A stretch of 18,902 nucleotides of DNA from a virus, in the IMG/VR virus record IMGVR_UViG_3300029822_000436, positions 1 through 18,902 of that record, one strand, 5' to 3'. A program made the translations under genes and the position numbers. Position 1 is the first letter of the stretch, and each line of letters opens with the position of its first letter. Below, piece after piece: positions 1-18,902 of this stretch. The notes under the pieces are model-generated. The model did no database searches and was not told where the DNA came from. It worked only from the letters and a program-made list of their open reading frames with translations.

Positions 1-89
1 GTAATATATACCACGCACATTTCCCCTCATTTCCCCAAACACAATATTTAACCATTTGTCAAGTACATTTTCACACAAACTTTCGTGCA
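1..89. repeat. Left inverted terminal repeat (ITR-L) and origin of protein-primed replication
   Basis: The reverse complement of 18814-18902 matches 1-89. Positions 1-63 are identical, with mismatches only at 64 and 71. A degenerate match (9 of 12) continues to about 101. Confidence 0.95.
18..37 (+). repeat. Tandem 10-bp direct repeat CATTTCCCC(T/A) inside the ITR, mirrored at 18866-18885
   Basis: CATTTCCCCT at 18-27 is followed directly by CATTTCCCCA at 28-37. A related CACATTTCC motif recurs at 16-24, and at about 64-72 (exact in the right copy, TACATTTTC in the left copy). Confidence 0.8.
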
Positions 90-97
90 TATTTTCC

Positions 98-126
98 TTG
101 CTATTTTCATACACAAATGTTATCAT
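98..126 (+). promoter_or_regulatory. Sigma-A type promoter (leftmost early promoter)
   Basis: TTGCTA (98-103), a 17-nt spacer, then extended -10 TGtTATCAT (118-126). It lies about 28 nt upstream of the ATG at 154, which has a strong RBS. Confidence 0.6.
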
Positions 127-153
127 TAGTTATAACCAAAAGGAGGAGCTATC

Positions 154-267
154 ATGAAACATATTTTCATCTGTCCTAAGTGCAAGAAAATTCACATCAA
201 ACCAAAACAAGCATATTACGTATGCGTTGATTGTCGAGCATTTCTAGTGTATAGGAGGGGTCAATAA
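154..267 (+). CDS. 37-aa zinc-ribbon protein (CPKC...CVDC), below the ORF-track length cutoff
   Basis: RBS AAAGGAGGAG (139-148) lies 5 nt upstream of the ATG. Translation is MKHIFICPKCKKIHIKPKQAYYVCVDCRAFLVYRRGQ, with two CxxC pairs. The stop overlaps the next ATG (TAATG). Confidence 0.6.
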   Translation: MKHIFICPKCKKIHIKPKQAYYVCVDCRAFLVYRRGQ

Positions 268-344
268 TGAAATTAGTGTCATTCACAATAAGATGGTTCA
301 TTTTCACAATGGTCATTTGCTCTATACTAAACGTTTTCATGTGA
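267..344 (+). CDS. 25-aa hydrophobic (single-TM) peptide
   Basis: The ATG overlaps the upstream stop (TAATG), and GGAGGGG (254-260) serves as RBS. Translation is MKLVSFTIRWFIFTMVICSILNVFM. It is very short, so this is tentative. Confidence 0.35.
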   Translation: MKLVSFTIRWFIFTMVICSILNVFM

Positions 345-382
345 TAATCACATTCTAGCATTCTCTAAAAAACTTTCCAATT

Positions 383-436
383 TTGTCAAACTTTTAATAG
401 AAAATGCTAGACTTTTGTTAATCACAATGATATACT
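383..436 (+). promoter_or_regulatory. Main early promoter region (two overlapping sigma-A-like promoters) for the 6-5-4-3-2 operon
   Basis: The first is TTGTCA (383-388), a 19-nt spacer, then TGcTAGACT (405-413). The second is TAGACT (408-413) as a -35, a 17-nt spacer, then extended -10 TGaTATACT (428-436). The predicted start is near 443, about 50 nt before the ATG at 493. Confidence 0.55.
389..419. promoter_or_regulatory. Candidate p4 operator: AACTTTTA-15 bp-CTTTTGTT
   Basis: The 8-15-8 geometry and outer AAC/GTT triplets match the phi29 p4 site AACTTTTT-N15-AAAATGTT (recalled). It overlaps the -35 and -10 elements of the early promoters. Confidence 0.4.
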
Positions 437-492
437 TAGTATAGAAGTTAAGAGATTAACTTACTAAACCACATGAAAAGAGGAAAATACAC

Positions 493-768
493 ATGCGTAA
501 AAAGATGACGAAAGAAGTTACAAAAACAACAATCAAAATTGCAAAGGTTCAAAATGTCGATGGACAACTAACAACGGAACAGCTTGACGACATTATCATG
601 ATTGGTAATGTTTCTGCTGAAAAAGCTCAAAAGCATGTTCATAAAGAACTTGGTACAAATGCAACAGTTTTCGGTGTTGAAGTTTCAACGGAAGTTTATG
701 AAATGGATGTTGAAGAATTTATCAAATACGCAACATTAAAGCAAGATACAAAATCTGTTTCTGAATAA
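493..768 (+). CDS. gp6: p6-like histone-like dsDNA-binding protein (replication and transcription cofactor)
   Basis: First gene of the early operon, as in phi29 transcription order. The pattern ...TKTT..IAK....VDG....EQL.....GN.....AQ...VE..TEVYE..VE.F...AT matches my recollection of phi29 p6, and the size is similar (91 vs 104 aa). Confidence 0.6.
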   Translation: MRKKMTKEVTKTTIKIAKVQNVDGQLTTEQLDDIIMIGNVSAEKAQKHVHKELGTNATVFGVEVSTEVYEMDVEEFIKYATLKQDTKSVSE

Positions 769-774
769 CAACTA

Positions 775-798
775 AAAGCGGTTCGGAAAAACCGCTTT
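775..798 (+). terminator. Hairpin after gene 6 (weak terminator or attenuator, or RNA-stabilising element)
   Basis: A 9-bp stem AAAGCGGTT/AACCGCTTT with loop CGGAAA. There is no real T-run after the stem, so termination would be partial at best. Confidence 0.3.
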
Positions 799-886
799 AC
801 ACCCTTCATACCAAAAGGGGCATATAATTACACACTAGCAAGACCAAATCAAAAAAACTAAAACAACTTAAAAGGGGTCAATTAAA

Positions 887-1435
887 ATGACAAAAAACGT
901 AAACGTAGATACACAAACTGGTGAAATCATGGAAACACAATCAAACGAGCAATTTATCGCAACGCTTGAACAATCACGTGCAAACGTAGTTTCTGAAACT
1001 GCTGAATACATGGTGTTAAAAGATGCAAACGGCAAATTTTCTCGTAAAGCAAAATATCATGCATTTTCATCAATCAAAGCAGAAAATCGTGCTGACAAAC
1101 TTTGGTTACTAAACATCTTGGAAGGCGACGAAAGTTCGGGTTACGGCTTGAAAGACAACGTAGGTAAAGAAATCGTTGTTGAAAATATCATCTTCCGTCC
1201 TTATGACCGTATTGATGAAAACACAGGTGAATTTGAATACGGTGTCTTAACTTACTTAATCACACCGGAAAAAGAAGCTTATGTTACTTCTGCCAAATCT
1301 GTCTACTTTACATTAAAACAAATCATGGAACTGTTTGGTGAGCCGGGTTCTACGGATTGGGAAAATATCACTGTAAAAGTGGGCAAGCAAAAAATGACTA
1401 ACGGTGACGCAATTAACATCAAAATGATTGGATAA
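887..1435 (+). CDS. gp5: p5-like single-stranded DNA-binding protein (longer than phi29 p5)
   Basis: It lies between the p6-like and p4 genes. The C-terminal 95 aa loosely follow the phi29 p5 pattern (I..N.I..Y...D..G...E..V.T....Y..S.K.V.....VKV). RBS AAAAGGGG is present. The assignment rests mainly on synteny. Confidence 0.5.
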   Translation: MTKNVNVDTQTGEIMETQSNEQFIATLEQSRANVVSETAEYMVLKDANGKFSRKAKYHAFSSIKAENRADKLWLLNILEGDESSGYGLKDNVGKEIVVENIIFRPYDRIDENTGEFEYGVLTYLITPEKEAYVTSAKSVYFTLKQIMELFGEPGSTDWENITVKVGKQKMTNGDAINIKMIG

Positions 1436-1447
1436 GGGGTGGCTTAT

Positions 1448-1828
1448 ATGCCTTCAACAATTCGGGGCATTTATCACAACTTAAAAGAAAGTGAATACAC
1501 GGTTTCTGATTCGGAAATCGTGTTTTTCTTTTCTTCTAAACTGTATTGTGATAAATTTCTAAAAGAGTACGAGGAACATAGAGATGTATTTTTAAATAAG
1601 ATGTATCGGTTAACAGGTGAAATTCCATTAAACATGACAACCCTTGCTGACATTACATTGTACAGAAGGATTGAAAAACGTGGATTCCGTGCATTATTAA
1701 AAGGGGTGGATATTACATGGCAAGACCTAAACGTTTACGCATTGCGAAAAATGATGTTAGTGAATACAAACGATTGGCAAAGAATACCCAAGCCAAAATT
1801 AACAGAACGTTTAAAAATTATGGAATAG
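1448..1828 (+). CDS. gp4: p4 late-transcription activator and early repressor
   Basis: MPSTIRGIYHNLKESEY..FFFSS.LY..KFL....LADIT.Y...EKRGF...LKG...TW....VYALR matches recalled phi29 p4 (MPKTQRGIYHNLKESEY..FFFSSELYLNKFL). The DNA-contacting Arg6 is conserved. I prefer the ATG at 1448 (RBS AAGGGGTGG, 1434-1442) to the GTG at 1439 in the ORF track. Confidence 0.85.
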   Translation: MPSTIRGIYHNLKESEYTVSDSEIVFFFSSKLYCDKFLKEYEEHRDVFLNKMYRLTGEIPLNMTTLADITLYRRIEKRGFRALLKGVDITWQDLNVYALRKMMLVNTNDWQRIPKPKLTERLKIME

Positions 1829-2499
1829 ATTTATCAAGTGAAATCAATGTTCCAAAATTAGAAGACTTCAAAACACGTAAAGAGTTTAACAGGTGGAAAG
1901 AAGAAGTTCGCGGTTTCACCAATCGTGCTAATACAAAATATCAATTCCAAAAGAACGAGTTCGGGGTTGTTGCAAGTAAAAGGGAAATCAATGAAGCAAA
2001 GCGAGCGACCAAACTCGCACAAAATTTAGCTAAACGTTTACAAAAAGAAACAGCTAAAAAACCGTTAATCGTTAATGGTAAAAAAGAAGGAACACTAGGT
2101 CAGCGTATGCAACAAATGGGAAAACCTAGTGTTGACGGGATACACGTTCCAAAAGATTTCGACTTTGATAAAATCCGTACACGTGAACAATTTGACTTGA
2201 AATCAGAAAGCATGAACAAACGGTCACAACCCGATTATTTGGACAAGCGACAGGTTGCCATGAAAGAAAACTATATTAAAATGTTAGCTGAAAACTATAA
2301 TTCAGACGGTGACGAATTAATAGAAGAAATTAAAAAGATAAACCCGTCCGATTTCTTTGAATTGTTTTTGATGCATGAAGAATTGCAATTTGACTTTGAA
2401 TACACAGAAGAACAAACGGAAGCAAATTTACAAAAGAAACTCTCTATCATTGAAAGTTACAAAGAGGGTAAAATAAATATGGACTTAAAGGGGTTTTGA
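1717..2499 (+). CDS. gp3: Terminal protein (primer for DNA replication)
   Basis: The N-terminus MARPKRLRIAKNDVSEYKRLAKNTQAKINRT.KNYGIDLSSEI and the C-terminus ...DLKGF are collinear with recalled phi29 TP (MARSPRIRIKDNDKAEYARLVKNTKAKIARTKKKYGVDLTAEI......SLKGF). It is 260 vs 266 aa and sits immediately upstream of the polymerase. Confidence 0.93.
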   Translation: MARPKRLRIAKNDVSEYKRLAKNTQAKINRTFKNYGIDLSSEINVPKLEDFKTRKEFNRWKEEVRGFTNRANTKYQFQKNEFGVVASKREINEAKRATKLAQNLAKRLQKETAKKPLIVNGKKEGTLGQRMQQMGKPSVDGIHVPKDFDFDKIRTREQFDLKSESMNKRSQPDYLDKRQVAMKENYIKMLAENYNSDGDELIEEIKKINPSDFFELFLMHEELQFDFEYTEEQTEANLQKKLSIIESYKEGKINMDLKGF

Positions 2500-2538
2500 A
2501 AGGGCTAGAAAAATACCCTAAATTTTAGGGGTGACGTA

Positions 2539-4278
2539 ATGGCACGGAAAAAATTCAGTTGCGACTTTGAAACAACAACAAAAATAGATGATTGTCGTGT
2601 GTGGGCTTATGGTTATATGCAGATAGGCAAAAAGTCAAATTACAAAATAGGGAACAGTATGGACGAATTTATGGAATGGGTGGAATTGGTTAAGTCGGAT
2701 TTATATTTCCACAATCTAAAATTCGATGGTTCATTTATTGTCAATTGGTTATTAAAAAATGGTTACGAGTATTCAGAAACACCAACAGCAAAAACGTTCA
2801 AAACAACCATATCAAGTATGGGGCAATGGTACATCATTGATATATGTTACGGTTTCAAAGGCAAACAAAAACTTCATTCCGTGATATACGACAGTTTAAA
2901 AAAGCTACCGTTTCCAGTAAAAAAGATTGCAGTTGATTTTAAGTTGCCGATATTAAAAGGCGATATTGATTATCACACCGAACGACCTATTGGGCATGTT
3001 ATTACAGAAGAAGAATATCAATACATTAAAAACGATATTGAAATCATTGCCGATGCATTGGAAATTCAATTCAAACAAGGTTTAGAAAAAATGACAAATG
3101 GTTCGGATAGTTTAACCGATTTAAAAAACATTATGTCAAAGAAAATGTTCGAAAAACATTTTCCAGTTTTCAGCTTGAAAATGGATAACGAGGTTCGGCT
3201 TGCATATCGTGGAGGGTTCACGTGGTTAAACGACATACATAAAAATAAAGTTGTTAATGAAGGTATGGTATTTGACGTAAATAGTCTATACCCTTCCGTT
3301 ATGTATAATCGTTTATTACCTTATGGATTCCCGATATATTTTGAAGGTGAATATAAAGAGGATGAAAGTTATCCGTTATATATACAAAAAATACGTTGTG
3401 AATTTTATTTAAAAGAAAACAAAATACCGACAATACAGATTAAAGGCGACGACAGGTTTAAAGGAACTGAGTATTTAAAAAACAGCAAAGGTGAAACAGT
3501 CGAGTTAGTTGTATCAAATGTCGACTTGAAACTAATTCAAGATAACTATGATTTATATGATATTGAATATTTGGGCGGTTGGAAATTCAAAGGGAAATCC
3601 GGTTTGTTTAAGGATTTCATTGACAAATGGACGTATGTAAAAATCAACAATGACGGTGCTGTTAAGGCGCTTGCAAAATTAATGTTGAATGCTTTATACG
3701 GAAAGTTCGCAACAAACCCGGATATAACAGGTAAAATCCCATACTTAAAAGATGATGGTTCATTAGGTTTCAAAATGGGAGATGAAGAATTCAAAGAACC
3801 TGTCTACACGCCAATGGGTGTATTTATAACATCATACGCTCGGGAACTGACAATTAGAACTGCTCAAAGTTGTTATGATAGAATTATTTATTGTGATACA
3901 GACAGTATTCATTTAACAGGTACTAATATTCCAGATTCTATTAAACATTTAATTCATGACGATAATTTAGGAATGTGGCAACATGAAAGCACGTTCAAGC
4001 GGGCAAAGTATATCAGACAAAAAACATATATCCAAGAATTATACGAAAGACAAAACACAAAAGGCAAATGGATAGGTGCTGGCAAAACAAATTATGAACG
4101 TTTGAAAACTTCCGTCAAGTGTGCGGGTATGCCGGATAATGTCAAAAAATTAGTAACATTCGATAACTTTGAAATCGGGTTTTCCGCACCTGGAAAATTA
4201 GTTCCAAAACAAGTTGATGGTGGCGTTGTATTAGTCGACAGTATTTTTACAATCAAAGAAGGAGGTTTAATATGGTAG
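2539..4278 (+). CDS. gp2: Protein-primed family B DNA polymerase
   Basis: Exo motifs are CDFETTT, HNLKFDGSFIVNWL and YIKNDIEII. Pol motifs are FDVNSLYPS, KLMLNALYGKF and YCDTDSIH. It is collinear with phi29 DNA polymerase along its whole length (579 vs 575 aa). Confidence 0.98.
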   Translation: MARKKFSCDFETTTKIDDCRVWAYGYMQIGKKSNYKIGNSMDEFMEWVELVKSDLYFHNLKFDGSFIVNWLLKNGYEYSETPTAKTFKTTISSMGQWYIIDICYGFKGKQKLHSVIYDSLKKLPFPVKKIAVDFKLPILKGDIDYHTERPIGHVITEEEYQYIKNDIEIIADALEIQFKQGLEKMTNGSDSLTDLKNIMSKKMFEKHFPVFSLKMDNEVRLAYRGGFTWLNDIHKNKVVNEGMVFDVNSLYPSVMYNRLLPYGFPIYFEGEYKEDESYPLYIQKIRCEFYLKENKIPTIQIKGDDRFKGTEYLKNSKGETVELVVSNVDLKLIQDNYDLYDIEYLGGWKFKGKSGLFKDFIDKWTYVKINNDGAVKALAKLMLNALYGKFATNPDITGKIPYLKDDGSLGFKMGDEEFKEPVYTPMGVFITSYARELTIRTAQSCYDRIIYCDTDSIHLTGTNIPDSIKHLIHDDNLGMWQHESTFKRAKYIRQKTYIQELYERQNTKGKWIGAGKTNYERLKTSVKCAGMPDNVKKLVTFDNFEIGFSAPGKLVPKQVDGGVVLVDSIFTIKEGGLIW

Positions 4279-4451
4279 GTTGTAAAACAAAAGCGATGTT
4301 GTCAGAAGAAATTAAGTACAGTATTCTCAAAGAACTGAATCACGTTTACAATGCATGTTACAACGGGAACGAGGAACATTTGTGTGAGGGATTGGAACTT
4401 GCGATTATCACAATTACTAATTTAAAATTCGGAGGGAAAAACAATGCGTAA
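4272..4451 (+). CDS. 59-aa hypothetical early protein (position of phi29 gene 1/56 region), not in the ORF track
   Basis: RBS GGAGG (4261-4265) lies 6 nt upstream of the ATG, which overlaps the polymerase stop (ATGGTAG). Translation is MVGCKTKAMLSEEIKYSILKELNHVYNACYNGNEEHLCEGLELAIITITNLKFGGKNNA. Confidence 0.5.
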   Translation: MVGCKTKAMLSEEIKYSILKELNHVYNACYNGNEEHLCEGLELAIITITNLKFGGKNNA

Positions 4452-4620
4452 TAGGTGGTTGGTTACATTCACATGTGAAAAAGAGGATAGTACATTCTAT
4501 CAAGTAGCAAACGAGGTTGATAGTTTAGTAAAAGTTTCACGGTTGATTCTATCATTTCAACCAAAGAAAAACAGCAAACTAGTTCAAATCAACATTGATG
4601 ATATATTAACATTATTTTGA
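4444..4620 (+). CDS. 58-aa hypothetical early protein, not in the ORF track
   Basis: RBS GGAGGG (4431-4436) lies 7 nt upstream of the ATG. It overlaps the previous ORF by 8 nt. Translation is MRNRWLVTFTCEKEDSTFYQVANEVDSLVKVSRLILSFQPKKNSKLVQINIDDILTLF. Confidence 0.5.
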   Translation: MRNRWLVTFTCEKEDSTFYQVANEVDSLVKVSRLILSFQPKKNSKLVQINIDDILTLF

Positions 4621-4645
4621 CAAATACATAGGATAGTGCTATACT
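4617..4645 (+). promoter_or_regulatory. Near-consensus sigma-A promoter driving the pRNA (phi29 A1 analogue)
   Basis: TTGACA (4617-4622), a 17-nt spacer, then extended -10 TGcTATACT (4637-4645). The predicted start is about 4651-4653. Confidence 0.8.
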
Positions 4646-4651
4646 TATCTA

Positions 4652-4871
4652 TATGAGGGGTAGCACTTCCTATAACATTTAGTCTGTTGGGTTTATCCGC
4701 ATTGAGTTGCGCCAACACTTTTGGTAGGTGATTCCTATTAGTGTTACAAGTGTCTATTACTTCATACACTCAAAACCATCCAAAAGCCCAAAAGCTATAA
4801 CGGATGGTTTTACTAATTTATCCTCATAAATTTAACATATGGAATAGGGATGGTTACCCTATTCTTTTTTT
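4652..4871 (+). ncRNA. pRNA: Packaging RNA (pRNA): core domain I about 4652-4767, plus a 3' domain II ending at the terminator
   Basis: There is direct similarity to recalled phi29 pRNA. GGUAGCACUUCC matches GGUACUUCC, and UGUUGGG...CCAACA matches UGUUGGGG...CCCACA. The hairpin CGCA-UUGAGU-UGCG (4698-4711) matches phi29 CUGA-UUGAGU-UCAG, with an identical loop and covarying stem. A 5'/3' helix joins 4652-4666 to 4750-4766, and a D-like hairpin lies at 4723-4739. No convincing ORF is present. Confidence 0.85.
4842..4871 (+). terminator. Rho-independent terminator ending the early/pRNA transcripts and insulating the late operon
   Basis: Stem GAATAGGG/CCCTATTC (4842-4849 and 4857-4864), a 7-nt loop, then seven T residues (4865-4871). 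Confidence 0.85.
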
Positions 4872-4889
4872 GTGTTCAAAAACAACTAT

Positions 4890-4903
4890 GTTTCACGTGA
4901 AAC
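4890..4903. promoter_or_regulatory. Perfect 14-bp palindrome GTTTCACGTGAAAC (candidate operator)
   Basis: The sequence is exactly self-complementary and is centred about 100 bp upstream of the predicted late start. The 16-mer ATGTTTCACGTGAAAC recurs at 17495-17510. Confidence 0.4.
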
Positions 4904-4931
4904 AAAAAATAGAAAAATAACAATTTTTGTT
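4901..4931. promoter_or_regulatory. Candidate p4 activator site: AACAAAAA-15 bp-TTTTTGTT
   Basis: A perfect 8-bp inverted repeat with a 15-bp spacer and outer AAC/GTT, as in the phi29 p4 site. Its centre (4916) is about 80-82 bp upstream of the predicted late start. phi29 p4 site 3 is centred at -82 of promoter A3. Confidence 0.5.
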
Positions 4932-4982
4932 CTATTAATTTCATTTGTGAACCGGATAATGAGTGTAGGATGTTAGACTAGA

Positions 4983-4991
4983 TGGTATAAT
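4983..4991 (+). promoter_or_regulatory. Late promoter (A3 analogue): extended -10 without a recognisable -35
   Basis: TGgTATAAT at 4983-4991. The -35 position (4963-4968, GTGTAG) is poor. The predicted start is about 4996-4998, some 35 nt before the gene 7 ATG. Confidence 0.65.
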
Positions 4992-5032
4992 AAGAATGTA
5001 AGATATTATTAAAACAGGAAGGATGTTGCAAA

Positions 5033-5335
5033 ATGCCAATGAGCAAGGAAGAACATGAAGCGTTACTAAATGAGTTACTAGGAGCAGACGTAGAACAATC
5101 AAGACGTACAGAAATCTTACAACAGCTACGAACTGATTACGGTACTGTCCACGCTGATTTCGAAAACATCACAACAAACAATCAAAAGTTACAAGCGAAT
5201 AATGACGACTTGATTATTTCAAATAGTCAATTGTTCCGACAGTTGGGTGTTGTTGGTGGTAATCAAGAAATGCAAAAACAGGAAGAACAGAAAACGTTTT
5301 CCGAAACAGTAACAATTGAAGCACTTGAAAAATAA
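5033..5335 (+). CDS. gp7: Head scaffolding protein
   Basis: MPMSKEEHEALLNELL....ILQQLR..YG......DDLIISNSQLFRQLG....ETVTIEALEK is collinear with recalled phi29 p7 (MPLKPEEHEDILNKLL...ALQQLR...DDLIVSNSKLFRQIG...ETITIEDLEAK). Confidence 0.9.
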   Translation: MPMSKEEHEALLNELLGADVEQSRRTEILQQLRTDYGTVHADFENITTNNQKLQANNDDLIISNSQLFRQLGVVGGNQEMQKQEEQKTFSETVTIEALEK

Positions 5336-5359
5336 TAACCGAAATGGAGAGAAAAAATT

Positions 5360-6685
5360 ATGACACGTATTACCTTTAAAGATGTAAGTACAAGTTTAGG
5401 TGTTAATGAATCCTACGACATTGTAAATGCTATTCGAAATTCAAATCCAAACTTTGCAAACTATGTACCACTTGCAACAGCAGAAAACGTTGCAGAAGTT
5501 GGTGCGGGTATTCTTATCAATCAAACAATTCAAAATGAATTTATCACATCATTGGTTGACCGTATCGGCTTGGTTGTTATTCGCAATGTATCGTTAAACA
5601 ACCCATTGAAAAAATTCAAAAAGGGACAAATGCCATTAGGTCGTACCATTGAAGAAATTTTCACTGATATTACAAAGGGTAAAAAATACGACCCGGAAGG
5701 CGCAGAAGAAACAGTTTTCAAACGTGAAATTCCAAACGTAAAAACTTTATTCCATGAACGAAACCGACAAGACTTTTATGAACAAACAATTCAAGATGAT
5801 TCATTAAAAACCGCATTCGTTTCATGGAGGCATTTTGAATCATTCATTTCTTCTGTAATTAATGCGATTTACAACAGTGCAGAGGTTGAAGAATATGAGT
5901 ACATGAAATTACTTGTTGACAACTACTTTGCAAAAGGATTATTTACAGTCGTAAAAGTCGACAAGCCTGATACAGAAACAGCAGCACGAAACTTTGTTAA
6001 AAAATTGCGTGCAACAGCGACAAAATTAACGTTACCAACAGGCTCACGTGATTTCAACTCATTAGCAGTTCGCACACGTTCGGATGTAAACGACTTACAT
6101 TTAATCATTGATGCTGACCTGAATGCTGAAATGGATGTTGAAGTTCTAGCACGTGCGTTCAATATGAACAAAACGGATTTCATCGGAAATGTTACAGTAA
6201 TTGACGGATTTTCTAGTACAGGTCTTGAAGCGGTTTTAGTGGACAAAGAGTGGTTCATGGTTTATGACAACTTGATGAAACTTGAAACCATCCGAAATCC
6301 GAAAGGTCTTTACTGGAATTATTTCTACCACGTTTGGCAAACACTTTCAGTTTCACGTTTTGCAAATGCAGTTGCGTTCGTTTCGGGTGACATTGCCCCT
6401 GTTACACAAGTGATTGTTGACCCAACAATTTTGGCATTACGTCAAGGTCGTTCATTTACATTCACGGCATATGTTCGTGAAAATGACAATGCGGGGCGTG
6501 AAGCGGTTTGGTCGGTTGAAGGCATGAATGGAACAGTAGTTGCATCGGGAACAACAATTGATGAAGGTACGCTAACAGTTGGCGATACACAGACAGGACA
6601 ATTGATGGTAAAAGCAACCGTAACATACGGTGAGGTTGATACGGAGACGGAAGTTGTTGGAGAATCAATCGTTACCATCGTATAG
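5360..6685 (+). CDS. gp8: Major capsid protein with C-terminal Ig-like (BIG2-type) domain
   Basis: Position and size match phi29 gp8 (441 vs 448 aa). The C-terminal 90 aa ([16 protein letters not shown]...VWSVEG...TGQL.VKATV) look like a bacterial Ig-like group 2 domain, as in phi29 gp8. Confidence 0.88.
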
Positions 6686-6701
6686 AAAGGATTGATTTTA
6701 C

Positions 6702-10638: not shown

Positions 10639-10648
10639 GAGGGTTAAC

Positions 10649-11986: not shown

Positions 11987-11990
11987 TAAA

Positions 11991-13901
11991 ATGGCTAATT
12001 TAAGAAAAGCTAGAGCGCAATTAATAAGTGGTGAAAACGGTGAGAATGTTGAGGATGTGGATATTCTCACTTCTGCTGACGCTGTTTCCTTTTCAGATGG
12101 TAGAAAATTAACAGAAGTTGAAACAACAATTACTCAGCAATTGGCACAAACTGCAACGCAACCCGTAAGAAATTTAGCATATGGTGATGTTAATGTTGCC
12201 GGTAAAAACATTAGTCGTACAATCGTAACTTTTATCTCGGACGACGGCTTTATAGAAGATTACACAAAACTGAAACCCATATTTGAAGCCGAGAGAGTTC
12301 CATTTTCTCCAGCAATCGTAAGTGATTGGGTTGGAAATTCTCGTTGCATGAGCGTTTCGCAGATTAAAGAAATCGAGAATATGGGTTGTGAAATTTTAGG
12401 GCACACTAAAACTCATCCCGAACTAGGTACACTTACGGAAGCACAACTCGAAAAGGAGCTGAAAGAGTCAAAATCCGCTTTAAAATCAATGGGTTTCGAT
12501 GTGAACCACATTGTATATCCTTACGGAAGTTACAGTAATTTAGTAAAGAAAATTGCACGCAAATATTACCGATCAGGCTATTTGTTTGGCAACACAGCAC
12601 AGACTAACTCTCAACCGTATGACACTTACGCTATTAAACGAATTGCACTAGGTTCTTATTTTGACCGACCATCTTCCGAGTTTCCTGTAACCAATACTTT
12701 CAATGATTATTATAAGCCGATGGTGGACAAGGCTGTTGCCAATAAAGAATGGCTAATTATTACATTACATCCGGGGGCATCAAACGGAGAATTTACGGCA
12801 GAACAACAAGGTTATTTGACGCAAACAATCCAGTACATCAAGTCACTTAATATCCCCATCAAAAACCCGACTGACGTTCTAAACGAACTGGGTAACTTGA
12901 TTGATGTTGTGGGATATACCGAAACCAATCAAGAAATCCCTTTCAAAATAGGAGCTAACGGAAAATTAGTTTCAACAGGAATAACTCAATCGGCAACAAT
13001 AATATTGAATGCTAATGAAAGAAATGCTATGTCGAAGGAATCCGATTTCGAACCGGGATATGTTACACATGTATTGGTTTCTTCTGCTAATGCATCTGGC
13101 ACACCTAACGGCAAAGGTGGTGTATTAGTCACAAATAGAACGATTCAAGCGAAAATGGGACTTACAGGAAACTTAACTACACAGACCTTTTATGAAATTT
13201 CACCATCAACAGGTGTTAGTGGCAAGGTGTATGTAAGGACTGCATCGGCGGGTGTGGATTATCCGTGGGGGCAATGGGAGGTAATTAACGAAAATAAATC
13301 CAATAGACTGACTGATAACCAATTGCCATCAAACACCCCACCAACAGGATTTCCAACGGGTAAAACAACAAGTCAAACATTCAATTCGTCCGGCAATAAA
13401 AGTGATTTACCTAATTTATCTTCGGGGACACTTCACACTTTTAGACATGAGACTGCCGCCTATAACGATTTCGCTTACCAAGTTTTTTACGCAGTGGATG
13501 GGAATATATACACTAGAAGGCACAGCGTAGGAGGAGCTTGGGGAGGTTGGCGAAAAGTAGTTACGGCAAGTGTTGATGGTTATTTTGATAATTTGAAAAA
13601 TAAAGGCGTAGTGGTAAATGAACAAAAAACATCTGCGCCATCTACATCGTCTATCAGCGTTGCAAATAAAAGTCGGATTGTGTTAAATACCGTAACCAAT
13701 AACGTAATCAACAATTTAATTGATGGAGTAGAGGGTCAAGAAATTATTCTGTTGAATACGAGCGGGCAGTCGATTACCTTAAAGCACTTAGCAAATGCAA
13801 ATGATGGATTTATAAACCTGGAAGGAGCTACCGATTACGTTTTAAAAGAGTTTAAGCCGATTAAATTAATTAAGTTTACAAACTCTTGGTACGTATTCTG
13901 A
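11991..13901 (+). CDS. Tail fibre / receptor-binding protein carrying a CE4 (NodB) polysaccharide deacetylase domain and two knob-like C-terminal repeats
   Basis: The fibre-type N-terminus is DILTSADAVSFSDGRKLTEV. NodB motifs are FISDDG (D84, D85), HTKTH (H138, H142), VYPYGS and IITLHPG. Two repeats of the G.L......Q.FY......Y.R......W..W..V type lie at about aa 376-432 and 479-524. Confidence 0.7.
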   Translation: MANLRKARAQLISGENGENVEDVDILTSADAVSFSDGRKLTEVETTITQQLAQTATQPVRNLAYGDVNVAGKNISRTIVTFISDDGFIEDYTKLKPIFEAERVPFSPAIVSDWVGNSRCMSVSQIKEIENMGCEILGHTKTHPELGTLTEAQLEKELKESKSALKSMGFDVNHIVYPYGSYSNLVKKIARKYYRSGYLFGNTAQTNSQPYDTYAIKRIALGSYFDRPSSEFPVTNTFNDYYKPMVDKAVANKEWLIITLHPGASNGEFTAEQQGYLTQTIQYIKSLNIPIKNPTDVLNELGNLIDVVGYTETNQEIPFKIGANGKLVSTGITQSATIILNANERNAMSKESDFEPGYVTHVLVSSANASGTPNGKGGVLVTNRTIQAKMGLTGNLTTQTFYEISPSTGVSGKVYVRTASAGVDYPWGQWEVINENKSNRLTDNQLPSNTPPTGFPTGKTTSQTFNSSGNKSDLPNLSSGTLHTFRHETAAYNDFAYQVFYAVDGNIYTRRHSVGGAWGGWRKVVTASVDGYFDNLKNKGVVVNEQKTSAPSTSSISVANKSRIVLNTVTNNVINNLIDGVEGQEIILLNTSGQSITLKHLANANDGFINLEGATDYVLKEFKPIKLIKFTNSWYVF

Positions 13902-13946
13902 GTTATAGTTCCAAATTGTGTAGCAGTAAAAAAGGAGATGTTGTAA

Positions 13947-15644
13947 ATGGATGTTATTAATAATTTAAGAATAAGACAAAAAGTGGGTGATAAATACAAT
14001 GTATTATTACCCGAAACTTCTTTGCAACAAGTACAAGACTTAACAACAGGGAAAAGACTATCAGAAATCATTGGAACACTTGACAACCTAAACACGTTCG
14101 AAAAAGAATCAATTGTTAAAGCTATTAATGAAACATTGATTGAAGTAGAAAATGTTTCGAATAAAGTGGGGAATCTTGATGAGCTGAATACGATTATAAA
14201 ATCGAATACAGTTGTCGCCATCAATGAAATTATCAACCGTCTCGAAAACTTAGGAGAATCAGATTACTCAAAAGTCACAAAAGGTGAGTTTGCTATCAAC
14301 GTAAAAGATTACGGTGCAAAGGGTGACGGTGTAACAGTTGATACACAGGCATTCAAAGATGCAATAGCGGTAGCCAAAACAAAAGGGAAAATGTTATACA
14401 TCCCAACAGGGGTTTATTGGACAGACAGTTTGACCATTCCAAGTGGTATGACAATTCAAGGTGACGGTATCACTAAAACAATTTTAAAACTTGTTGCAAA
14501 TTCAACAGACGCATTACTTGTTATTACAGAACAAAATGATGTGACATTACGAGGGTTTACCGTTGACGGAAATTCTCAAAATCATGTTGCGGGTTCAACT
14601 ATCATTTTTTGGAAATCAAGACGCAATATGGTCGATAATATCAAGGTGGTCAATTCAGCAACAATTGGTTTGAACATGTCAAACGTTACGGATAGTAGAA
14701 TCCAAAATTCACATTTTGATGGGACAACGGAAAACTGCGTAGTCTCATTCAGCAATGACAATCAAGAATATTCAATTGGGAATAATACCGTTGTAAATAA
14801 TATCATGGAAAACGGTGCATTGGATGGTATCATTTATAACACAATCGGTGGAATCATTACAGACAACGTTTTCTTAAACAATGGTAAACGTCAAGGATGG
14901 ACGGCGGGTGGTGTGTATGCCAATAACAAATACTATCTAACGATTGCGAACAATTTAATCATTGGAAACAACGGAAACGGGGTTGACTTGATTGATTGCG
15001 GTAATTCGATTGTAACAGGTAACTCATGTCGTGATAATAATTCGGCGGGTATCATGTTTGCAAACTGTAAAAATAGTAATATCGAAAATAACGTATGTGT
15101 AAACAACGGCGTTCAACCTGCCGTTGACCAAGATGATGGAATTACAATCTTAGGCGGTTCACAACTTATTATTTCCGGGAATCGTTGTTTTGACGGTAAG
15201 ACAGTACGAACTCAAACACACGGTATTCACTTACTAGATAATGCTAATAACATCATCATTGCAAATAATTTATGCACGGATAACAAAGAAAATGATGGCA
15301 TCAAACTGGAATCAACGACAAGCGATATTTTACGCAGTGCGAATAAACCGATGCCGTCAGACCTACCAAGTGAAATGAATATCCTGTTCAATTTAACAGA
15401 AGGACAATCCAAAACACTGATTGGAAATAAACGAATTTCAATCATCGAATTGGTTGACAAAAGTTTGAGGGCATATGCAAAAATATTTGTTCGTGGAACT
15501 GACAACACATTCACGGTGTTAGAAAGTCCGGTGTCAGGAATGGAAACAGAAAACACATTTAGTTTCGTTGGTGATAACTTTACTATAACAAATAATCGTG
15601 CGGGGACTGCGTACTATTCCTATCGCATAACATATGTGGATTAG
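13947..15644 (+). CDS. gp12: Pre-neck appendage / tailspike with pectin-lyase-fold right-handed beta-helix (gp12-like, shorter)
   Basis: INVKDYGAKGDGVTVDTQAFKDAI.....LYIP.G.Y is the classic N-cap of Pectate_lyase_3-type beta-helix proteins. Repetitive N.G/NN.. rungs follow (IANNLIIGNNGNGVDL, VTGNSCRDNNSAGI, IENNVCVNNG, ISGNRCFDG, IANNLCTDN). The N-terminus again has xIVKAINE and xVVAINEI motifs. It is 565 vs 854 aa in phi29, and no C-terminal autochaperone is recognisable. Confidence 0.75.
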   Translation: MDVINNLRIRQKVGDKYNVLLPETSLQQVQDLTTGKRLSEIIGTLDNLNTFEKESIVKAINETLIEVENVSNKVGNLDELNTIIKSNTVVAINEIINRLENLGESDYSKVTKGEFAINVKDYGAKGDGVTVDTQAFKDAIAVAKTKGKMLYIPTGVYWTDSLTIPSGMTIQGDGITKTILKLVANSTDALLVITEQNDVTLRGFTVDGNSQNHVAGSTIIFWKSRRNMVDNIKVVNSATIGLNMSNVTDSRIQNSHFDGTTENCVVSFSNDNQEYSIGNNTVVNNIMENGALDGIIYNTIGGIITDNVFLNNGKRQGWTAGGVYANNKYYLTIANNLIIGNNGNGVDLIDCGNSIVTGNSCRDNNSAGIMFANCKNSNIENNVCVNNGVQPAVDQDDGITILGGSQLIISGNRCFDGKTVRTQTHGIHLLDNANNIIIANNLCTDNKENDGIKLESTTSDILRSANKPMPSDLPSEMNILFNLTEGQSKTLIGNKRISIIELVDKSLRAYAKIFVRGTDNTFTVLESPVSGMETENTFSFVGDNFTITNNRAGTAYYSYRITYVD

Positions 15645-15654
15645 GTGATATAAA

Positions 15655-16767
15655 ATGGTAGTTGTAGCAAATAGATTTTTAACCTTAGAAGAAATGACAA
15701 TTAATGCGGAATATATTCTTTCCGCATTACTTTCAAAAGGATGGTCAAAAAATGCGGTTGCCGGTATGTTAGGTAACATGCAGACCGAAAGTACCATTAA
15801 CCCCGGAATTTGGCAAGACCTTGCAGAAGGTCGTTTGGACTTAGGGTTCGGGTTAGTACAATGGACACCCGCTAGTAAGTATACAAATTGGGCTGATTCA
15901 AAGGGGTATCAGTGGACAGATATAGAAGGACAATTGGAACGTTTACAATATGAGATAGACAACAATATCCAATGGATACCAACAGTTGATTATCCTATGT
16001 CGTTCAACGAATTTAAAACGTCAACCGAAACACCCGAATATTTGGCGCAGGTATTTTTACGAAATTATGAACGACCCAACGACCAAAATCAGCCAGACCG
16101 TAGCACACAAGCTCGTTATTGGTTTGAAAATTTAACGGGAACGGGTGGACAACCCTGTTTACAGTTGGCACAATTCCCAATGGATATGATACGCATTACA
16201 CAAGGAGAGAATGGGCAATATTCACACATGGGAATCCTCGCAATAGATTTCGTGGGTTCACACAACCAATACCCATATTATGCCCCATGTGATTGTGAAT
16301 GTGTTGCATCCTTCAATGACGTTGCAGTTTGGCGGTCAACACATGAGGTCATGTGTGCGGATGGACAGAAACGAAAAATATTTTGGTCTTGTATCCATGA
16401 AGTGCCATTGTCTCATACAGAAGGAACATTATTGATGAAAGGCGAACTCATGGGACATACAGGTGTTGGTGGTACAGCAACAGGTGACCATTTACATTTG
16501 CAAGTTATGTTGGGTGACGAATATTTGGGGTTTACACGTAACGCACAAGGGGCATCTACATTAGTAGGAACTGAACTACACATTTATGATGTGTTTTCCG
16601 TGGGTGGTGTGGATATTGTAGACGGTTACGGGTATCCGTGGAAGATTAGTGATTATGTCGATTGTAGCGAGGGTGGCGGTGGTGAGAATCCTAAGCCACC
16701 TATAAAGAGAAATAATGTAATCATAAAACTTCTATTATGTGATGCACTAAACGGTTGGAAATACTGA
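15655..16767 (+). CDS. gp13: Tail-associated peptidoglycan hydrolase (N-terminal lysozyme-like domain plus M23 metallopeptidase)
   Basis: N-terminal GWSKNAVAGMLGNMQTESTINPGIWQ...GFGLVQWTP is the phage tail lysozyme motif. The C-terminal half has M23/LytM signatures (H..G.LAIDF ... GDHLHLQV). Position and size (370 vs 365 aa) match phi29 gp13. Confidence 0.88.
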   Translation: MVVVANRFLTLEEMTINAEYILSALLSKGWSKNAVAGMLGNMQTESTINPGIWQDLAEGRLDLGFGLVQWTPASKYTNWADSKGYQWTDIEGQLERLQYEIDNNIQWIPTVDYPMSFNEFKTSTETPEYLAQVFLRNYERPNDQNQPDRSTQARYWFENLTGTGGQPCLQLAQFPMDMIRITQGENGQYSHMGILAIDFVGSHNQYPYYAPCDCECVASFNDVAVWRSTHEVMCADGQKRKIFWSCIHEVPLSHTEGTLLMKGELMGHTGVGGTATGDHLHLQVMLGDEYLGFTRNAQGASTLVGTELHIYDVFSVGGVDIVDGYGYPWKISDYVDCSEGGGGENPKPPIKRNNVIIKLLLCDALNGWKY

Positions 16768-16801
16768 ATGTTGATGTGAATAAAATTAGGAGTTGATAAA
16801 A

Positions 16802-17032
16802 ATGAAGGTAATGTTGGACAAAATGGAGGTGTATGTCCTAGTGTCACATTTAATCATTACGTTAGCAATAATTGGGGTGTACTGCTACACACTAATAACA
16901 GGGCAAGGGGACGAAACTCTTAAAACGATTTTGACTGTAATTGTCGGTTATTGGTTCGGTTCAATGGGTGTGAATGCAATTAAACCTGCTAACCAAAACA
17001 ACATTGAAACATCAAAGGAGGTTGAAAAGTAA
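16802..17032 (+). CDS. Putative holin (two predicted TM helices)
   Basis: It lies immediately upstream of, and overlapping, the endolysin start. Hydrophobic stretches are VLVSHLIITLAIIGVYCYTLI and ILTVIVGYWFGSMGV, and the C-terminus is charged. RBS AGGAG (16788-16792) favours the ATG at 16802 over the TTG at 16793. It is much shorter than phi29 gp14 (76 vs 131 aa). Confidence 0.7.
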   Translation: MKVMLDKMEVYVLVSHLIITLAIIGVYCYTLITGQGDETLKTILTVIVGYWFGSMGVNAIKPANQNNIETSKEVEK

Positions 17033-17730
17033 TGGAACTATCTGAAACAGGTTTGGCTTTTATCCAAGCACATGAAGGGTTAAGTTTAACATGGTATGAA
17101 TTGAATGATGGTGGCTTAACGGTTGGTTATGGACATTACGTTCCGCATGCAACAGCTAAAAAACAAGGAATTAAAAAAGGTGATAAAATTACCCGTGAAC
17201 AAGCCCGTGATTATTTGAAACAAGATATTAAACGGTTTGTAGATGGGACAAACAACCAATTGAAACATTACGGGTTTGACGTAAATCAAAACCAATTTGA
17301 TGCACTTGTATCATATGCTTTCAATCGGGGATTAGGTAACAGTAAAGCAACAAACGGGTTACGACAATTATTAAAGAACTCGAAAAGTGTGGCTGACATT
17401 GGAAAGAATCTACTTGTATATTGGGGTACGAATAAGCATTATAAAAACGGGTTATTGAACCGCAGAAATGCTGAAAAGAAATTGTTTGAATCAAATGTTT
17501 CACGTGAAACCATTATTAAAGAAAATGAGGTGGATGAATTGGAATTTTCAAGTCCAACACTAAAACAAATGTATAAAGACCGAATTGAATCACCGAATAC
17601 GATGCAACTATTAGATGCAAAAGCGGTTGAAGTATTAAAACACCAATCAAAACTAAAAAACGGAAAATTAACAGATGGCGACATGAATGCAATTGCGCTT
17701 GAACTCGCTGTTCACTATGCTAAACAGTAA
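17032..17730 (+). CDS. gp15: Endolysin: GH24 (T4-lysozyme-like) muramidase with an unassigned C-terminal domain
   Basis: GLAFIQAHEGLSL..Y....GGLTVGYGH fits the catalytic E...D...T arrangement of phage lysozymes, as do FDALVSYAFN.G and GLLNRR.AE. The last 75 aa show no LysM pattern. Confidence 0.9.
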   Translation: MELSETGLAFIQAHEGLSLTWYELNDGGLTVGYGHYVPHATAKKQGIKKGDKITREQARDYLKQDIKRFVDGTNNQLKHYGFDVNQNQFDALVSYAFNRGLGNSKATNGLRQLLKNSKSVADIGKNLLVYWGTNKHYKNGLLNRRNAEKKLFESNVSRETIIKENEVDELEFSSPTLKQMYKDRIESPNTMQLLDAKAVEVLKHQSKLKNGKLTDGDMNAIALELAVHYAKQ

Positions 17731-17743
17731 AGGATGATGGAAA

Positions 17744-18742
17744 ATGGAAAAGTCGTTGTATTATAACCCCAACAAAATGTTGTCTTATAATCGTATCTTA
17801 AATTTTATTATCGGTGCACGTGGTATTGGTAAATCATATGGGATGAAGGAATTTCCAATCAAACGATTTTTAAAATACGGTGAACAATTTATTTATGTAA
17901 GACGGTACAAAACCGAATTACGTAAAATCAGCAACTATTTTGATGATGTGAAATCGGCTTTTCCCGACCATACATTCAAGGTAAAAGGACGGCAGTTATT
18001 CATTGACGATAAATTGTTCGGTTGGGCAATTCCATTATCAGCATGGCAAAGTGAAAAATCCAATGCCTATCCGAATGTTACAACGATTGTATTTGATGAA
18101 TTTATTCGAGAAAAGGATAATAGCGGGTATCTCCCGAATGAAGTTTCCGCACTATTAAACTTGATGGATACTGTGTTTCGTGATAGAGATAATGTAAGAA
18201 CCGTTTGCTTATCCAATGCGGTGTCGGTGGTAAACCCCTATTTTCTGTACTTTAATATTCAACCGAATATCAATAAACGATTTAATGCTTATCAATCGTT
18301 GTTAGTAGAAATACCCAATTCAAAGGACTTTTCGGAACAACGTAGAAAGACACGTTTCGGTGAACTAATTGACGGTACTGAATACGGTGATATGTCATTA
18401 GACAATGAATTTACAAATGATAGTGAAGTGTTTATTGAAAAGCGTAGTAAGAATAGTAAGTATCAATTTAGTGTCGTGTACAATGGTATGACATTTGGTG
18501 TTTGGGTTGATACGAATTTGCGTGCGATGTATTTGTCGACAGACACAGACCCATCTAGTAAAAATGTTTATGCATTGACAGCGAGTGATTTGAATGAGAA
18601 AACGTTGTTGATGATTGGATGGAAAAATAACTATCATTTAAAGAAGTTGGTTAGCGCATTCAAGAATGGATTGTTGAGGTTTGATAATCAAGTGATTAGA
18701 ACGACAGCTTATGAGATGTTTAAAAAGATGAATATAAATTAG
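17744..18742 (+). CDS. gp16: DNA packaging ATPase
   Basis: It is 332 aa, the same length as phi29 gp16, and collinear with it throughout. Examples are MEKSLYYNPNKMLSYNRILNFIIGARGIGKSY (Walker A), TIVFDEF (Walker B), NEVSALLNLMDTVFR and LSNAVSVVNPYF. Confidence 0.97.
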   Translation: MEKSLYYNPNKMLSYNRILNFIIGARGIGKSYGMKEFPIKRFLKYGEQFIYVRRYKTELRKISNYFDDVKSAFPDHTFKVKGRQLFIDDKLFGWAIPLSAWQSEKSNAYPNVTTIVFDEFIREKDNSGYLPNEVSALLNLMDTVFRDRDNVRTVCLSNAVSVVNPYFLYFNIQPNINKRFNAYQSLLVEIPNSKDFSEQRRKTRFGELIDGTEYGDMSLDNEFTNDSEVFIEKRSKNSKYQFSVVYNGMTFGVWVDTNLRAMYLSTDTDPSSKNVYALTASDLNEKTLLMIGWKNNYHLKKLVSAFKNGLLRFDNQVIRTTAYEMFKKMNIN

Positions 18743-18766
18743 TCTCTCTTTTGAGAGACTTTTTTG
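18741..18766 (+). terminator. Rho-independent terminator of the late operon
   Basis: Stem AGTCTCTC/GAGAGACT (18741-18748 and 18753-18760), loop TTTT, then TTTTTGTT. It overlaps the gp16 stop codon. Confidence 0.85.
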
Positions 18767-18813
18767 TTGTTATTTGTGTGTAACATTATTGCTTGAATAA
18801 TGCAAGGATAAAT

Positions 18814-18902
18814 TGCACGAAAGTTTGTGTGGAAATGTGCTTGACAAATGGTTAAATATTGTGTTTGGGGAAATGAGGGGAAATGTGCGTGGTATATATT
18901 AC
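18814..18902. repeat. Right inverted terminal repeat (ITR-R) and origin of protein-primed replication
   Basis: Mirror image of 1-89. 18840-18902 is a perfect reverse complement of 1-63. Confidence 0.95.

Follow-up and report, generated by a model that had tools for sequence, protein, structure and literature searches.

Probable inversion of the left early module in a small lineage of uncultivated phi29-type phages

Gene content and strand organization

The window, that is, the whole stretch of 18,902 nt analysed here (IMG/VR record IMGVR_UViG_3300029822_000436, positions 1 to 18,902), is the whole linear genome of a small phi29-type phage. The genes follow the order p6-p5-p4-terminal protein (TP)-DNA polymerase (pol)-small open reading frames (ORFs)-pRNA, then gp7 to gp16, and 17 of the 17 large ORFs lie on the + strand, as the original prediction had stated for every supported gene. 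Features on the + strand account for 94.3% of the genome. The 5.7% that is unassigned leaves no room for p16.7 and p17, whose absence had also been predicted. The early genes and the late operon are the following:

493-768, + strand: p6, histone-like dsDNA-binding protein (PF17548, E = 1.5e-14)
887-1435, + strand: p5-like single-stranded DNA-binding protein (SSB; PF17427, 27.6 bits, cut-off 25)
1448-1828, + strand: p4, late-transcription activator and early repressor (PF05464, E = 2e-51)
1717-2499, + strand: terminal protein, gp3 (PF05435, E = 1.7e-87), overlapping the 3' end of p4
2539-4278, + strand: protein-primed family B DNA polymerase, gp2 (PF03175, E = 1.1e-89)
4272-4451, + strand: small early ORF o59
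4444-4620, + strand: small early ORF o58
5033-18742, + strand: late operon, gp7 through gp16

The p4 gene is intact, with its start at the ATG at 1448 rather than the GTG at 1439, and both the N-hook MPxTxRGIYHN and the C-terminal LxERxK motif are kept. The codon scores of o59 and o58 are +0.24 and +0.26. The genes that mark the phi29/Nf clade were found, namely TP and family B polymerase (PolB), p6, p5 and p4 above their cut-offs, and gp7, gp8, gp9, gp10, gp11, gp13 and gp16. The classical three-module layout of that clade (left early genes leftward, late genes rightward, right early genes leftward) is not that of the window.

No convincing - strand gene was found by Pfam or codon score. Among the ten largest - strand ORFs, no Pfam match reached E <= 0.001, and a CEL_III_C match (E 0.0047, far under cut-off) was taken as chance. 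The mean codon-usage score was -0.09 for the 55 - strand ORFs of at least 40 aa, compared with +0.22 to +0.60 for the annotated genes. A 128-aa - strand ORF at 6442-6828 was rejected, its seeming conservation being that of the antisense frame of the conserved capsid gene.

Genome termini and the left-end genes

The features at the two ends, including the inverted terminal repeats (ITRs), are as follows:

1-122: left ITR, presumed replication origin, starting GTAATATATACC; inverted repeat of 122 nt, 90% complementary to 18781-18902
98-126, + strand: predicted inward-reading sigma-A-type promoter at the ITR boundary, TTGCTA-17-TATCAT with a TG extension (TGtTATCAT); promoter scan 9/12
154-267, + strand: zn37, 37-aa CPKC...CVDC zinc-ribbon protein, sequence MKHIFICPKCKKIHIKPKQAYYVCVDCRAFLVYRRGQ, with strong Shine-Dalgarno AAAGGAGG
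267-344, + strand: tm25, 25-aa hydrophobic peptide, sequence MKLVSFTIRWFIFTMVICSILNVFM, with Shine-Dalgarno AGGAGGGG; its start overlaps the zn37 stop (TAATG)
18741-18760: TD1-like bidirectional terminator hairpin, called on both strands by the terminator scan, directly before the right ITR
18781-18902: right ITR, gene-free, with a decayed copy of the ITR promoter

The ITR arms are identical over the first 63 nt and mismatches accumulate toward the inner end. The arms differ at 12 positions and therefore represent two genuine, distinct ends. Both ends begin GTAATATATA (positions 1-12 and 18891-18902), which agrees with a phi29-type terminal 5'-AAAGTA only if three A residues were dropped from the assembly. 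The terminal AAA is probably absent from the assembly of the window; the true end is probably AAAGTAATATATA, and the terminal bases are expected to read AAAGTAAT... In two related contigs, L173 and L421 (related loci are given L numbers throughout), the ends begin ATATAT, further inside than the window, and all assemblies of the lineage (the window and the ends of L173, L421 and L425) fall short of the expected terminus. This fits a loss of terminal-protein-linked bases in library preparation. When the ITR core CCCTCATTTCCCCA (14-mer) was scanned in viral and metagenome contigs, the 239 loci screened were chance matches only, the pattern being too short for the size of the collection.

At the right end, gp16 ends at 18742 and its stop lies 38 nt from the right ITR. 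The terminator hairpin is all that was found between gp16 and the ITR, in agreement with the prediction that nothing is encoded there, and an equivalent hairpin parts gp16 from leftward genes in L173 and L427. An inverted repeat (4812-4835 / 18720-18743) was considered as a recombination scar and judged to be a chance match in AT-rich DNA.

At the left end, the original gene list had its identities right and missed two short + strand genes, zn37 and tm25. The ITR-boundary promoter would serve both of them and probably continues into p6. The block AATGTTATCATTAGGTATAACCAAAA, which comprises the -10 and the Shine-Dalgarno, is kept in L421 and at the ends of L173, and the copy in the right ITR of the window has a decayed -10, TACACA. 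A - strand ORF at 197-361 was rejected as a gene: homologs and Pfam matches are lacking, its ribosome-binding site is weak, and it overlaps the conserved + strand pair zn37/tm25.

Predicted regulatory elements

The elements predicted at the two edges of the early module are listed below.

380-406: p4 site-1-like box, just 5' of the A2c-type promoter, with two mismatches to CTTTTT-N15-AAAATG
408-436, + strand: predicted A2c-type early promoter, TAGACT-17-TGaTATACT (promoter scan)
4617-4645, + strand: predicted A1-type pRNA promoter, TTGACA-17-TGcTATACT, the best promoter match of the genome (11/12 with TG)
4655-4768, + strand: pRNA domain I, match to the full-length RF00044 model (49.1 bits, E = 7e-10, local search)
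4773-4810, + strand: hairpin, positional counterpart of pRNA domain II / terminator TA1
4841-4872, + strand: second intrinsic terminator, predicted by terminator scan and fold, with stem GGAATAGGG...CCCTATTC (4841-4865) followed by T7
4889-4904: perfect 16-bp palindrome TGTTTCACGTGAAACA, between the second terminator and the p4-site-like repeat, overlapping the first two bases of the repeat
4903-4929: p4 site-3-like repeat CAAAAA-N15-TTTTTG, 27 bp, the only perfect match in the genome
4983-4991, + strand: predicted A3-type late promoter with extended -10 TGGTATAAT (-10 hexamer 4986-4991) and no usable -35 (GTGTAG)

The stretch 380-436 aligns with the A2c promoter and upstream p4 site of phi29, B103, Goe1, L106 and L099, and also with those of the classical sisters of the window. 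The A1-type promoter is kept in four members of the lineage, and the pRNA region (4655-4810), with a fold z-score of -3.6, is kept across the lineage. The second terminator is kept in four genomes, including L173, L425 and L175, with compensatory stem changes (AATAGG/CCTATT versus AACAGG/CCTGTT). Early read-through in a head-to-tail layout would express the late genes too soon, so a reinforced stop is to be expected between the pRNA and the late promoter. The palindrome TGTTTCACGTGAAACA, kept or nearly so in all four lineage members in an alignment that includes L173, L425 and L175, may be an operator for some host or phage factor.

The site-3-like repeat ends exactly 56 nt before the late -10 hexamer. 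The same spacing, counted from the sequences, was found for site 3 of phi29 (CTTTTT-N15-AAAATG) and for the B103 site (CAAAAT-N15-GAAAAG). The late -10 TGGTATAAT is identical to the -10 of phi29 A3 and is kept in the relatives. At the position of the repeat, the sisters L173, L175 and L425 carry CAAAAA-N15-AAAATG or TAAATG, and TTTTTG occurs in the window only. Three adjacent A -> T changes (4920-4929) turn the site of the window into a perfect inverted repeat. The DNA specificity of p4 is reported to depend on the outer G-C pairs and on indirect readout of A-tracts (PMC1904284), and binding of p4 to the repeat variants of the lineage is plausible on this basis.

The early -10 (431-436) and the late -10 (4986-4991) are 4,555 nt apart, which matches the separation of about 4.5 kb originally proposed. 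That predicted p4-dependent elements are kept at both of the separated promoters was a point absent from that proposal. In phi29, p6 links the p4 bound at sites 1 and 3 into a hairpin, by which early repression and late activation are coupled (PMC3100819). With the p4 sites 4.5 kb apart, p4 would act at each site separately in the window.

On these predictions, the ITR-boundary promoter (98-126) would transcribe zn37 and tm25, the A2c-type promoter would then drive p6-p5-p4-TP-pol-o59-o58, and the A1-type promoter would drive the pRNA. The tandem terminators at 4773-4810 and 4841-4872 would keep early transcription out of the late genes. Once made, p4 would act on the repeat at 4903-4929 to turn on the -35-less A3-type promoter, from which the late genes would be read to the terminator at 18741-18760, and p4 at 380-406 would shut off the A2c-type promoter.

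Related genomes and soundness of the assembly

Relatives of the window were found via the connector and p6 proteins. L173 (ENA ERZ27234679; 18.2 kb) shares the layout of the window and runs collinear with it at a DNA identity of 76-81%. L425 (SRR22138401) extends from the ITR to gp10, with p6, pol and gp7 in between and a single coding strand, L421 and L420 (SRR3374768x) begin in the ITR and read into p6-p5-p4-TP-pol, L175 covers pol, o59, o58 and gp7, and L428 (SRR22355883) covers b62 (an accessory gene described below), zn37, tm25, the A2c promoter and p6. Proteins of the window itself are listed for two contigs, with JGI, Logan and ENA as the sources.

The assembly behind the window is of metagenome type, the expected terminal AAA is missing from both ends, and flipped records do occur in databases. 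These points would favour an assembly artefact: segment 1-4900 joined the wrong way round, or a right end cut short, in a phage that is really classical. The PZA record (M11813 / NC_001423; L095/L133) is such a case, since its left ~5.2 kb is reverse-complemented, it starts with internal sequence, and the true terminus AAAGTAAGCCC sits in reverse complement at ~5190. The left arm of PZA was therefore deposited in the wrong orientation, and the same-strand layout of pol and gp16 in the RefSeq record is false. Used as a control, the PZA record shows what a flipped arm does, namely bury a terminus inside the genome, and the window shows nothing alike: the 122-nt repeat stands at both physical ends, in arms that differ at 12 positions. 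Furthermore, both junctions are spanned in independent assemblies of relatives, the ITR-p6 junction in L421, L425 and L428 and the pRNA-gp7 junction in L173, L425 and L175, and the proteins of the window were recovered from three sources. An artefact is effectively refuted by this evidence; in particular, a misoriented 1-4900 segment, a scenario originally named as one that would refute the claim, is excluded by the ITRs at both ends together with the junction-spanning relatives.

Phylogeny and probable origin of the inversion

No deposited phage matches the DNA of the window beyond short stretches. By protein, the closest phages are Goe1, Nf, B103 and M2, with pol 69% identical (Goe1, Nf, M2) and gp16 ~74% identical. 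Simple neighbour-joining trees, made for pol, gp10 and gp16, group the window with four relatives in a single clade nested in the phi29/Nf clade. The immediate sisters of this clade, L430, L431 and L433, are classical and have leftward right-end operons.

Layouts were surveyed in IMG/VR loci centred on gp10, in which ~30 near-complete relatives are classical and divergent. A co-directional layout was otherwise found only in BeachBum, Athos, L115/L124/L126 (three contigs from one metagenome) and the artefactual PZA record. In the trees, Athos, L115/L124/L126 and BeachBum, which has the classical VMY22 as its sister, fall elsewhere. As the flipped genomes related to the window form one clade and their nearest sisters are classical, the flip would have arisen once here, at the base of a shallow clade and independently of Harambevirus. 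Across the family, the left arm has flipped at least four independent times in the survey.

The breakpoints were located by local alignments to the sisters. Window 340/379-492, in reverse complement, corresponds to the p6-proximal part of the single divergent intergenic region of the sisters, and window 4917-5030 corresponds to the gp7-proximal part of the same region. In the L431 region the two blocks meet, at positions 236 and 233. Homologs of o59 and o58 lie 3' of pol in L173, L175 and L425 and also in the classical L433 and L430. The position of o58, just 3' of pol as in the window, is thus shared with classical sisters, which indicates that the early block flipped as a unit and agrees with the predicted preservation of the order p6-p5-p4-TP-pol-small ORFs-pRNA. 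The inversion would have involved the whole left early module, from the A2c promoter through the pRNA terminator, with one breakpoint between the A2c and A3 promoters and the other just inside the left terminus.

Distant phi29-related phages, namely Microbacterium cluster GI, Athos and L115/L124/L126, also carry SSB, TP, pol and the late genes on one strand (PMC11664425), and this could mean that the one-direction layout is ancestral, the classical divergent layout derived, and that no flip took place here. The flipped clade, however, is nested within ~30 classical genomes and its closest sisters L430, L431 and L433 are classical, so that many independent changes to the classical layout would be needed. 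In addition, the halves of the single divergent regulatory region of the sisters are split between 340-492 and 4917-5030 in the window. An ancestral one-direction layout is accordingly very improbable.

It is considered quite likely that the window represents an uncultivated phi29-type phage (Salasmaviridae, near phi29/Nf) of a small undescribed lineage, in which the left early module was turned round in one piece at the base of the clade, leaving one direction of transcription and a split p4 switch. Several points weigh against this reading. The neighbour-joining trees are without support values, and the breakpoint alignments are in AT-rich DNA at ~65% identity, so their coordinates are approximate. 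The pRNA that is expected of the phi29/Nf clade was found with a match of 49 bits, below the Rfam gathering score of 100. All promoters, terminators and p4 sites are sequence predictions, and binding of p4 is not assured where the window has TTTTTG and phi29 and the sisters have AAAATG/TAAATG. The phi29-type p4 box is not enriched genome-wide (10 matches versus 11.5 expected), so the case for the p4 sites is one of position and homology. Finally, the right end of the window is supported by its diverged ITR and not by a second contig.

The left-end cassette and the gene-free right end

The original prediction held that the right early operon was missing. The right end is indeed empty, and the prediction had overlooked the zn37/tm25 cassette at the left end, which is collinear with a miniature operon at the right end of L173. 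Read inward, the right end of L173 consists of a 209-nt ITR with the same promoter and Shine-Dalgarno block, followed by leftward genes. These - strand genes encode a 46-aa CPKC...CREC protein, a 25-aa peptide MRTISRMINWILFTLTLCAFINIFM and a 29-aa ORF, and they are followed by a bidirectional terminator and gp16. The left 345 nt of the window are collinear with this end. L427, the right end of the SRR33747684 phage, has at least one leftward gene beyond the terminator. The lineage therefore has a miniature right early operon, whose homologs in the window lie at the left end while the right end is empty. Either the right early operon was miniaturised and relocated, or it was kept on the left only.

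Left-end copies of the cassette occur in the window, L428, L421 and L425, and L173 has it at the right end. For zn37, identity is 81% in L420-424, ~86% in L428 and 68% in L425, always 5' of p6, and tm25 is 62-64% identical in L420-425 and 40% in L173 and is kept in L428. In the left-end cassettes zn37 always precedes tm25, and the A2c-type promoter follows directly. The sisters have one or two more accessory genes there, a92 or a106, and b62. Homologs of a92/a106 lie 3' of pol in the classical genomes L125, L103 and L085. Pfam and PHROGs gave no informative match for a92, a106, b62, zn37, tm25, o59 or o58. In L425, a zinc-ribbon ORF is in frame with a b62-type ORF (443-757, 104-aa product), and in L421, b62 and zn37 are separate and in the opposite order relative to L425. 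The accessory genes of the left-end operon are thus shuffled and sometimes fused.

Weak traces of the cassette are also present at the opposite ends. At the left end of L173, the ATG and the first few zinc-ribbon codons remain, and in the right ITR of the window, the decayed promoter and part of the Shine-Dalgarno region are fused directly to the terminator. Homologs of zn37 and tm25 were not found in the classical relatives or closest classical sisters searched, so these genomes do not indicate which end was ancestral for the cassette. The finding of the cassette at opposite ends in sister genomes points to end copying as a route for genes between ends. It is tentatively proposed that the genome ends act as exchangeable cassettes, each consisting of a long ITR with an inward promoter and Shine-Dalgarno and then a small accessory operon. 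One end might be copied onto the other in protein-primed replication, for example by panhandle-type end repair, giving a gene-bearing long ITR of which a different copy was lost in each descendant. If this were true, ITR-mediated end copying would be a regular route for early genes between the ends of protein-primed phage genomes, and end copying together with the flip could merge all early genes into one left-end unit.

The phi29 right early operon also includes a small cysteine protein: its gene nearest gp16, 147 nt downstream of it, encodes a 54-aa CxxC...CxxC protein, which is comparable to zn37 by analogy only. Gxv1 (L019) has three copies of this 54-aa protein, 150-2090 nt downstream of gp16, which indicates a tandem duplication at the right end.

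Other short right ends were looked for. Among the Salasmaviridae-type genomes in ~100 of 257 gp16-bearing phage records inspected, none had a distance from gp16 to the end below ~800 nt. Untruncated right ends in the IMG/VR sample measured 424-992 nt at the shortest, each with small - strand ORFs. The flip could be real and the empty right end a recent deletion in a population variant, perhaps less fit or defective, rather than the stable layout of the lineage. This would accord with the leftward genes that the sisters keep after gp16 (three tiny ones in L173 and at least one past the bidirectional terminator in L427), with the decayed promoter and weak Shine-Dalgarno trace joined to the terminator, and with the lack of any other sampled Salasmaviridae-type genome with gp16 less than ~400-800 nt from the end. 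On the other side, the right ITR is 10% diverged and its promoter decayed, which suggests a loss that is not very recent; at the left end, the zn37-tm25 cassette remains intact, so that its function is not lost; and the genome of the window was recovered on two contigs. The right early genes of phi29 are also dispensable under laboratory conditions. A recent deletion is therefore regarded as unlikely, and under the favoured reading of an inverted early module the window would be the most streamlined member of its lineage, with a gene-free right end.

Comparison with known phages

phi29 is the standard example of protein-primed replication, and also of a transcription switch in which the divergent A2c/A2b/A3 region is folded by p4 and p6 into a single hairpin complex. 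The window shares with phi29, Nf, B103 and Goe1 (Salasmaviridae, Picovirinae) p6, p5, p4, TP, PolB, the pRNA and gp7 to gp16, with pol 67-69% and gp16 73-75% identical, the A2c-, A1- and A3-type promoters, and the position of the p4 site 56 nt from the late -10. In contrast to this group, its left early module shares a strand with the late genes, it is without the right early operon, p16.7 and p17, and a promoter plus two tiny genes separate its left ITR from p6. Its ITR of 122 nt contrasts with 6-8 bp in phi29 and Nf, and the early and late p4 sites are 4.5 kb apart, compared with ~100-200 bp.

Novelty of the arrangement was not borne out. Papers of 2018 (PMC6266182) and 2023 (PMC9965433) already describe the left early region of Harambe and BeachBum as oppositely oriented, this orientation is also annotated in Athos, and it was found in three IMG/VR contigs. 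One-direction genomes are known from cluster GI (PMC11664425). The original proposal had named commonness of the layout in described relatives as grounds for calling it real but not novel, and this applies in part.

In Harambevirus, p6-p5(SSB)-p4-TP-pol are likewise co-directional with the late genes (BeachBum annotation) and p4 is kept. The pol and gp16 are 57% and 53% identical to those of the window, DNA matches are limited to 169 nt, the clades are separate, and the ITR is ~16 bp. BeachBum also has a six-gene leftward right-end operon after gp16, including a p16.7-like protein, whereas the window has none. An Rfam search for the pRNA in BeachBum, Athos and L126 gave nothing at E <= 0.01, and their junctions are not comparable with those of the window.

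The phi29-related Microbacterium phages of cluster GI have 121-bp ITRs and all genes in one direction (PMC11664425). Among these podoviruses (Evcara, Curie, PineapplePizza), all or nearly all genes share one direction in the order SSB-TP-pol-capsid...terminase, and the ITR of ~121 bp resembles that of the window. They differ in their high G+C and in gp16, which is ~32% identical (PineapplePizza). In PineapplePizza, p4 and p6 are not annotated, the record lists no RNA gene, and eight small + strand genes lie downstream of the terminase, where the window has none.

The Enterococcus Salasmaviridae (Athos, CUB-FM, vB_EfaP_2/Chl-5) also have p6, SSB, TP, pol and the late genes on one strand, and small + strand genes between the left end and p6. 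They differ in a pol that is ~52% identical, in having no p4 annotated, and in keeping a six-gene leftward right-end operon.

Both the flip and the one-direction layout have been described before in phi29-related phages, and what appears to be new is a true phi29-type genome, with p4, p6 and pRNA, whose right end is empty. Since both unusual features have published precedents, the current understanding is not overturned. The flip of the left early arm would be a recurrent and tolerated event in phi29-type genomes, co-directional early and late operons would be accompanied by a conserved extra terminator, and the right early operon could shrink to nothing. A lineage with p4, p6 and A2c- and A3-type promoters 4.5 kb apart and head-to-tail would be a natural test of the need for the bridged complex in early-promoter repression and late-promoter activation. 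For taxonomy, an uncultivated clade of at least five genomes would stand beside the phi29/Nf group. A host search over genome contigs returned only a distant contig of a Rummeliibacillus metagenome-assembled genome.

Late genes and accessory variation

The genes of the late operon are as follows:

5033-5335, + strand: gp7 scaffold (Pfam)
5360-6685, + strand: major capsid protein (MCP; Pfam)
6702-8465, + strand: tail knob gp9 (Pfam)
8465-9361, + strand: connector gp10 (Pfam)
9361-10638, + strand: gp11, lower collar (PHROGs)
10649-11986, + strand: protein with appendage-type N-terminus, 445 aa (PHROGs)
11991-13901, + strand: polysaccharide deacetylase with depolymerase C-terminal domain, 636 aa (Pfam)
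13947-15644, + strand: pectate-lyase-type beta-helix protein, 565 aa (Pfam)
15655-16767, + strand: gp13 (Pfam)
16793-17032, + strand: holin
17032-17730, + strand: lysozyme (Pfam)
17744-18742, + strand: gp16 packaging ATPase (Pfam)

The MCP has a C-terminal Big_2 Ig-like domain, and the interval from the capsid gene to gp9 holds no separate head-fibre gene (gp8.5). Three consecutive appendage/depolymerase-type proteins (10649-15644) are encoded where phi29 has a single gp12. In L173, one 1006-aa protein stands in place of these three, indicating that the receptor-binding cassette was swapped inside the lineage.

Within the early module, a strong hairpin with a 10-bp stem (AAAGCGGTT...AACCGCTTT) at 775-798 lies directly 3' of the p6 stop and was called as a terminator on the - strand only. 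Without a T-run on the + strand, it may be an RNA-stabilising or attenuating structure between p6 and p5. In L173, a DNA methylase gene (PF00145; 4715-5359 of that genome) lies between the o59 and o58 homologs, and the window has none.

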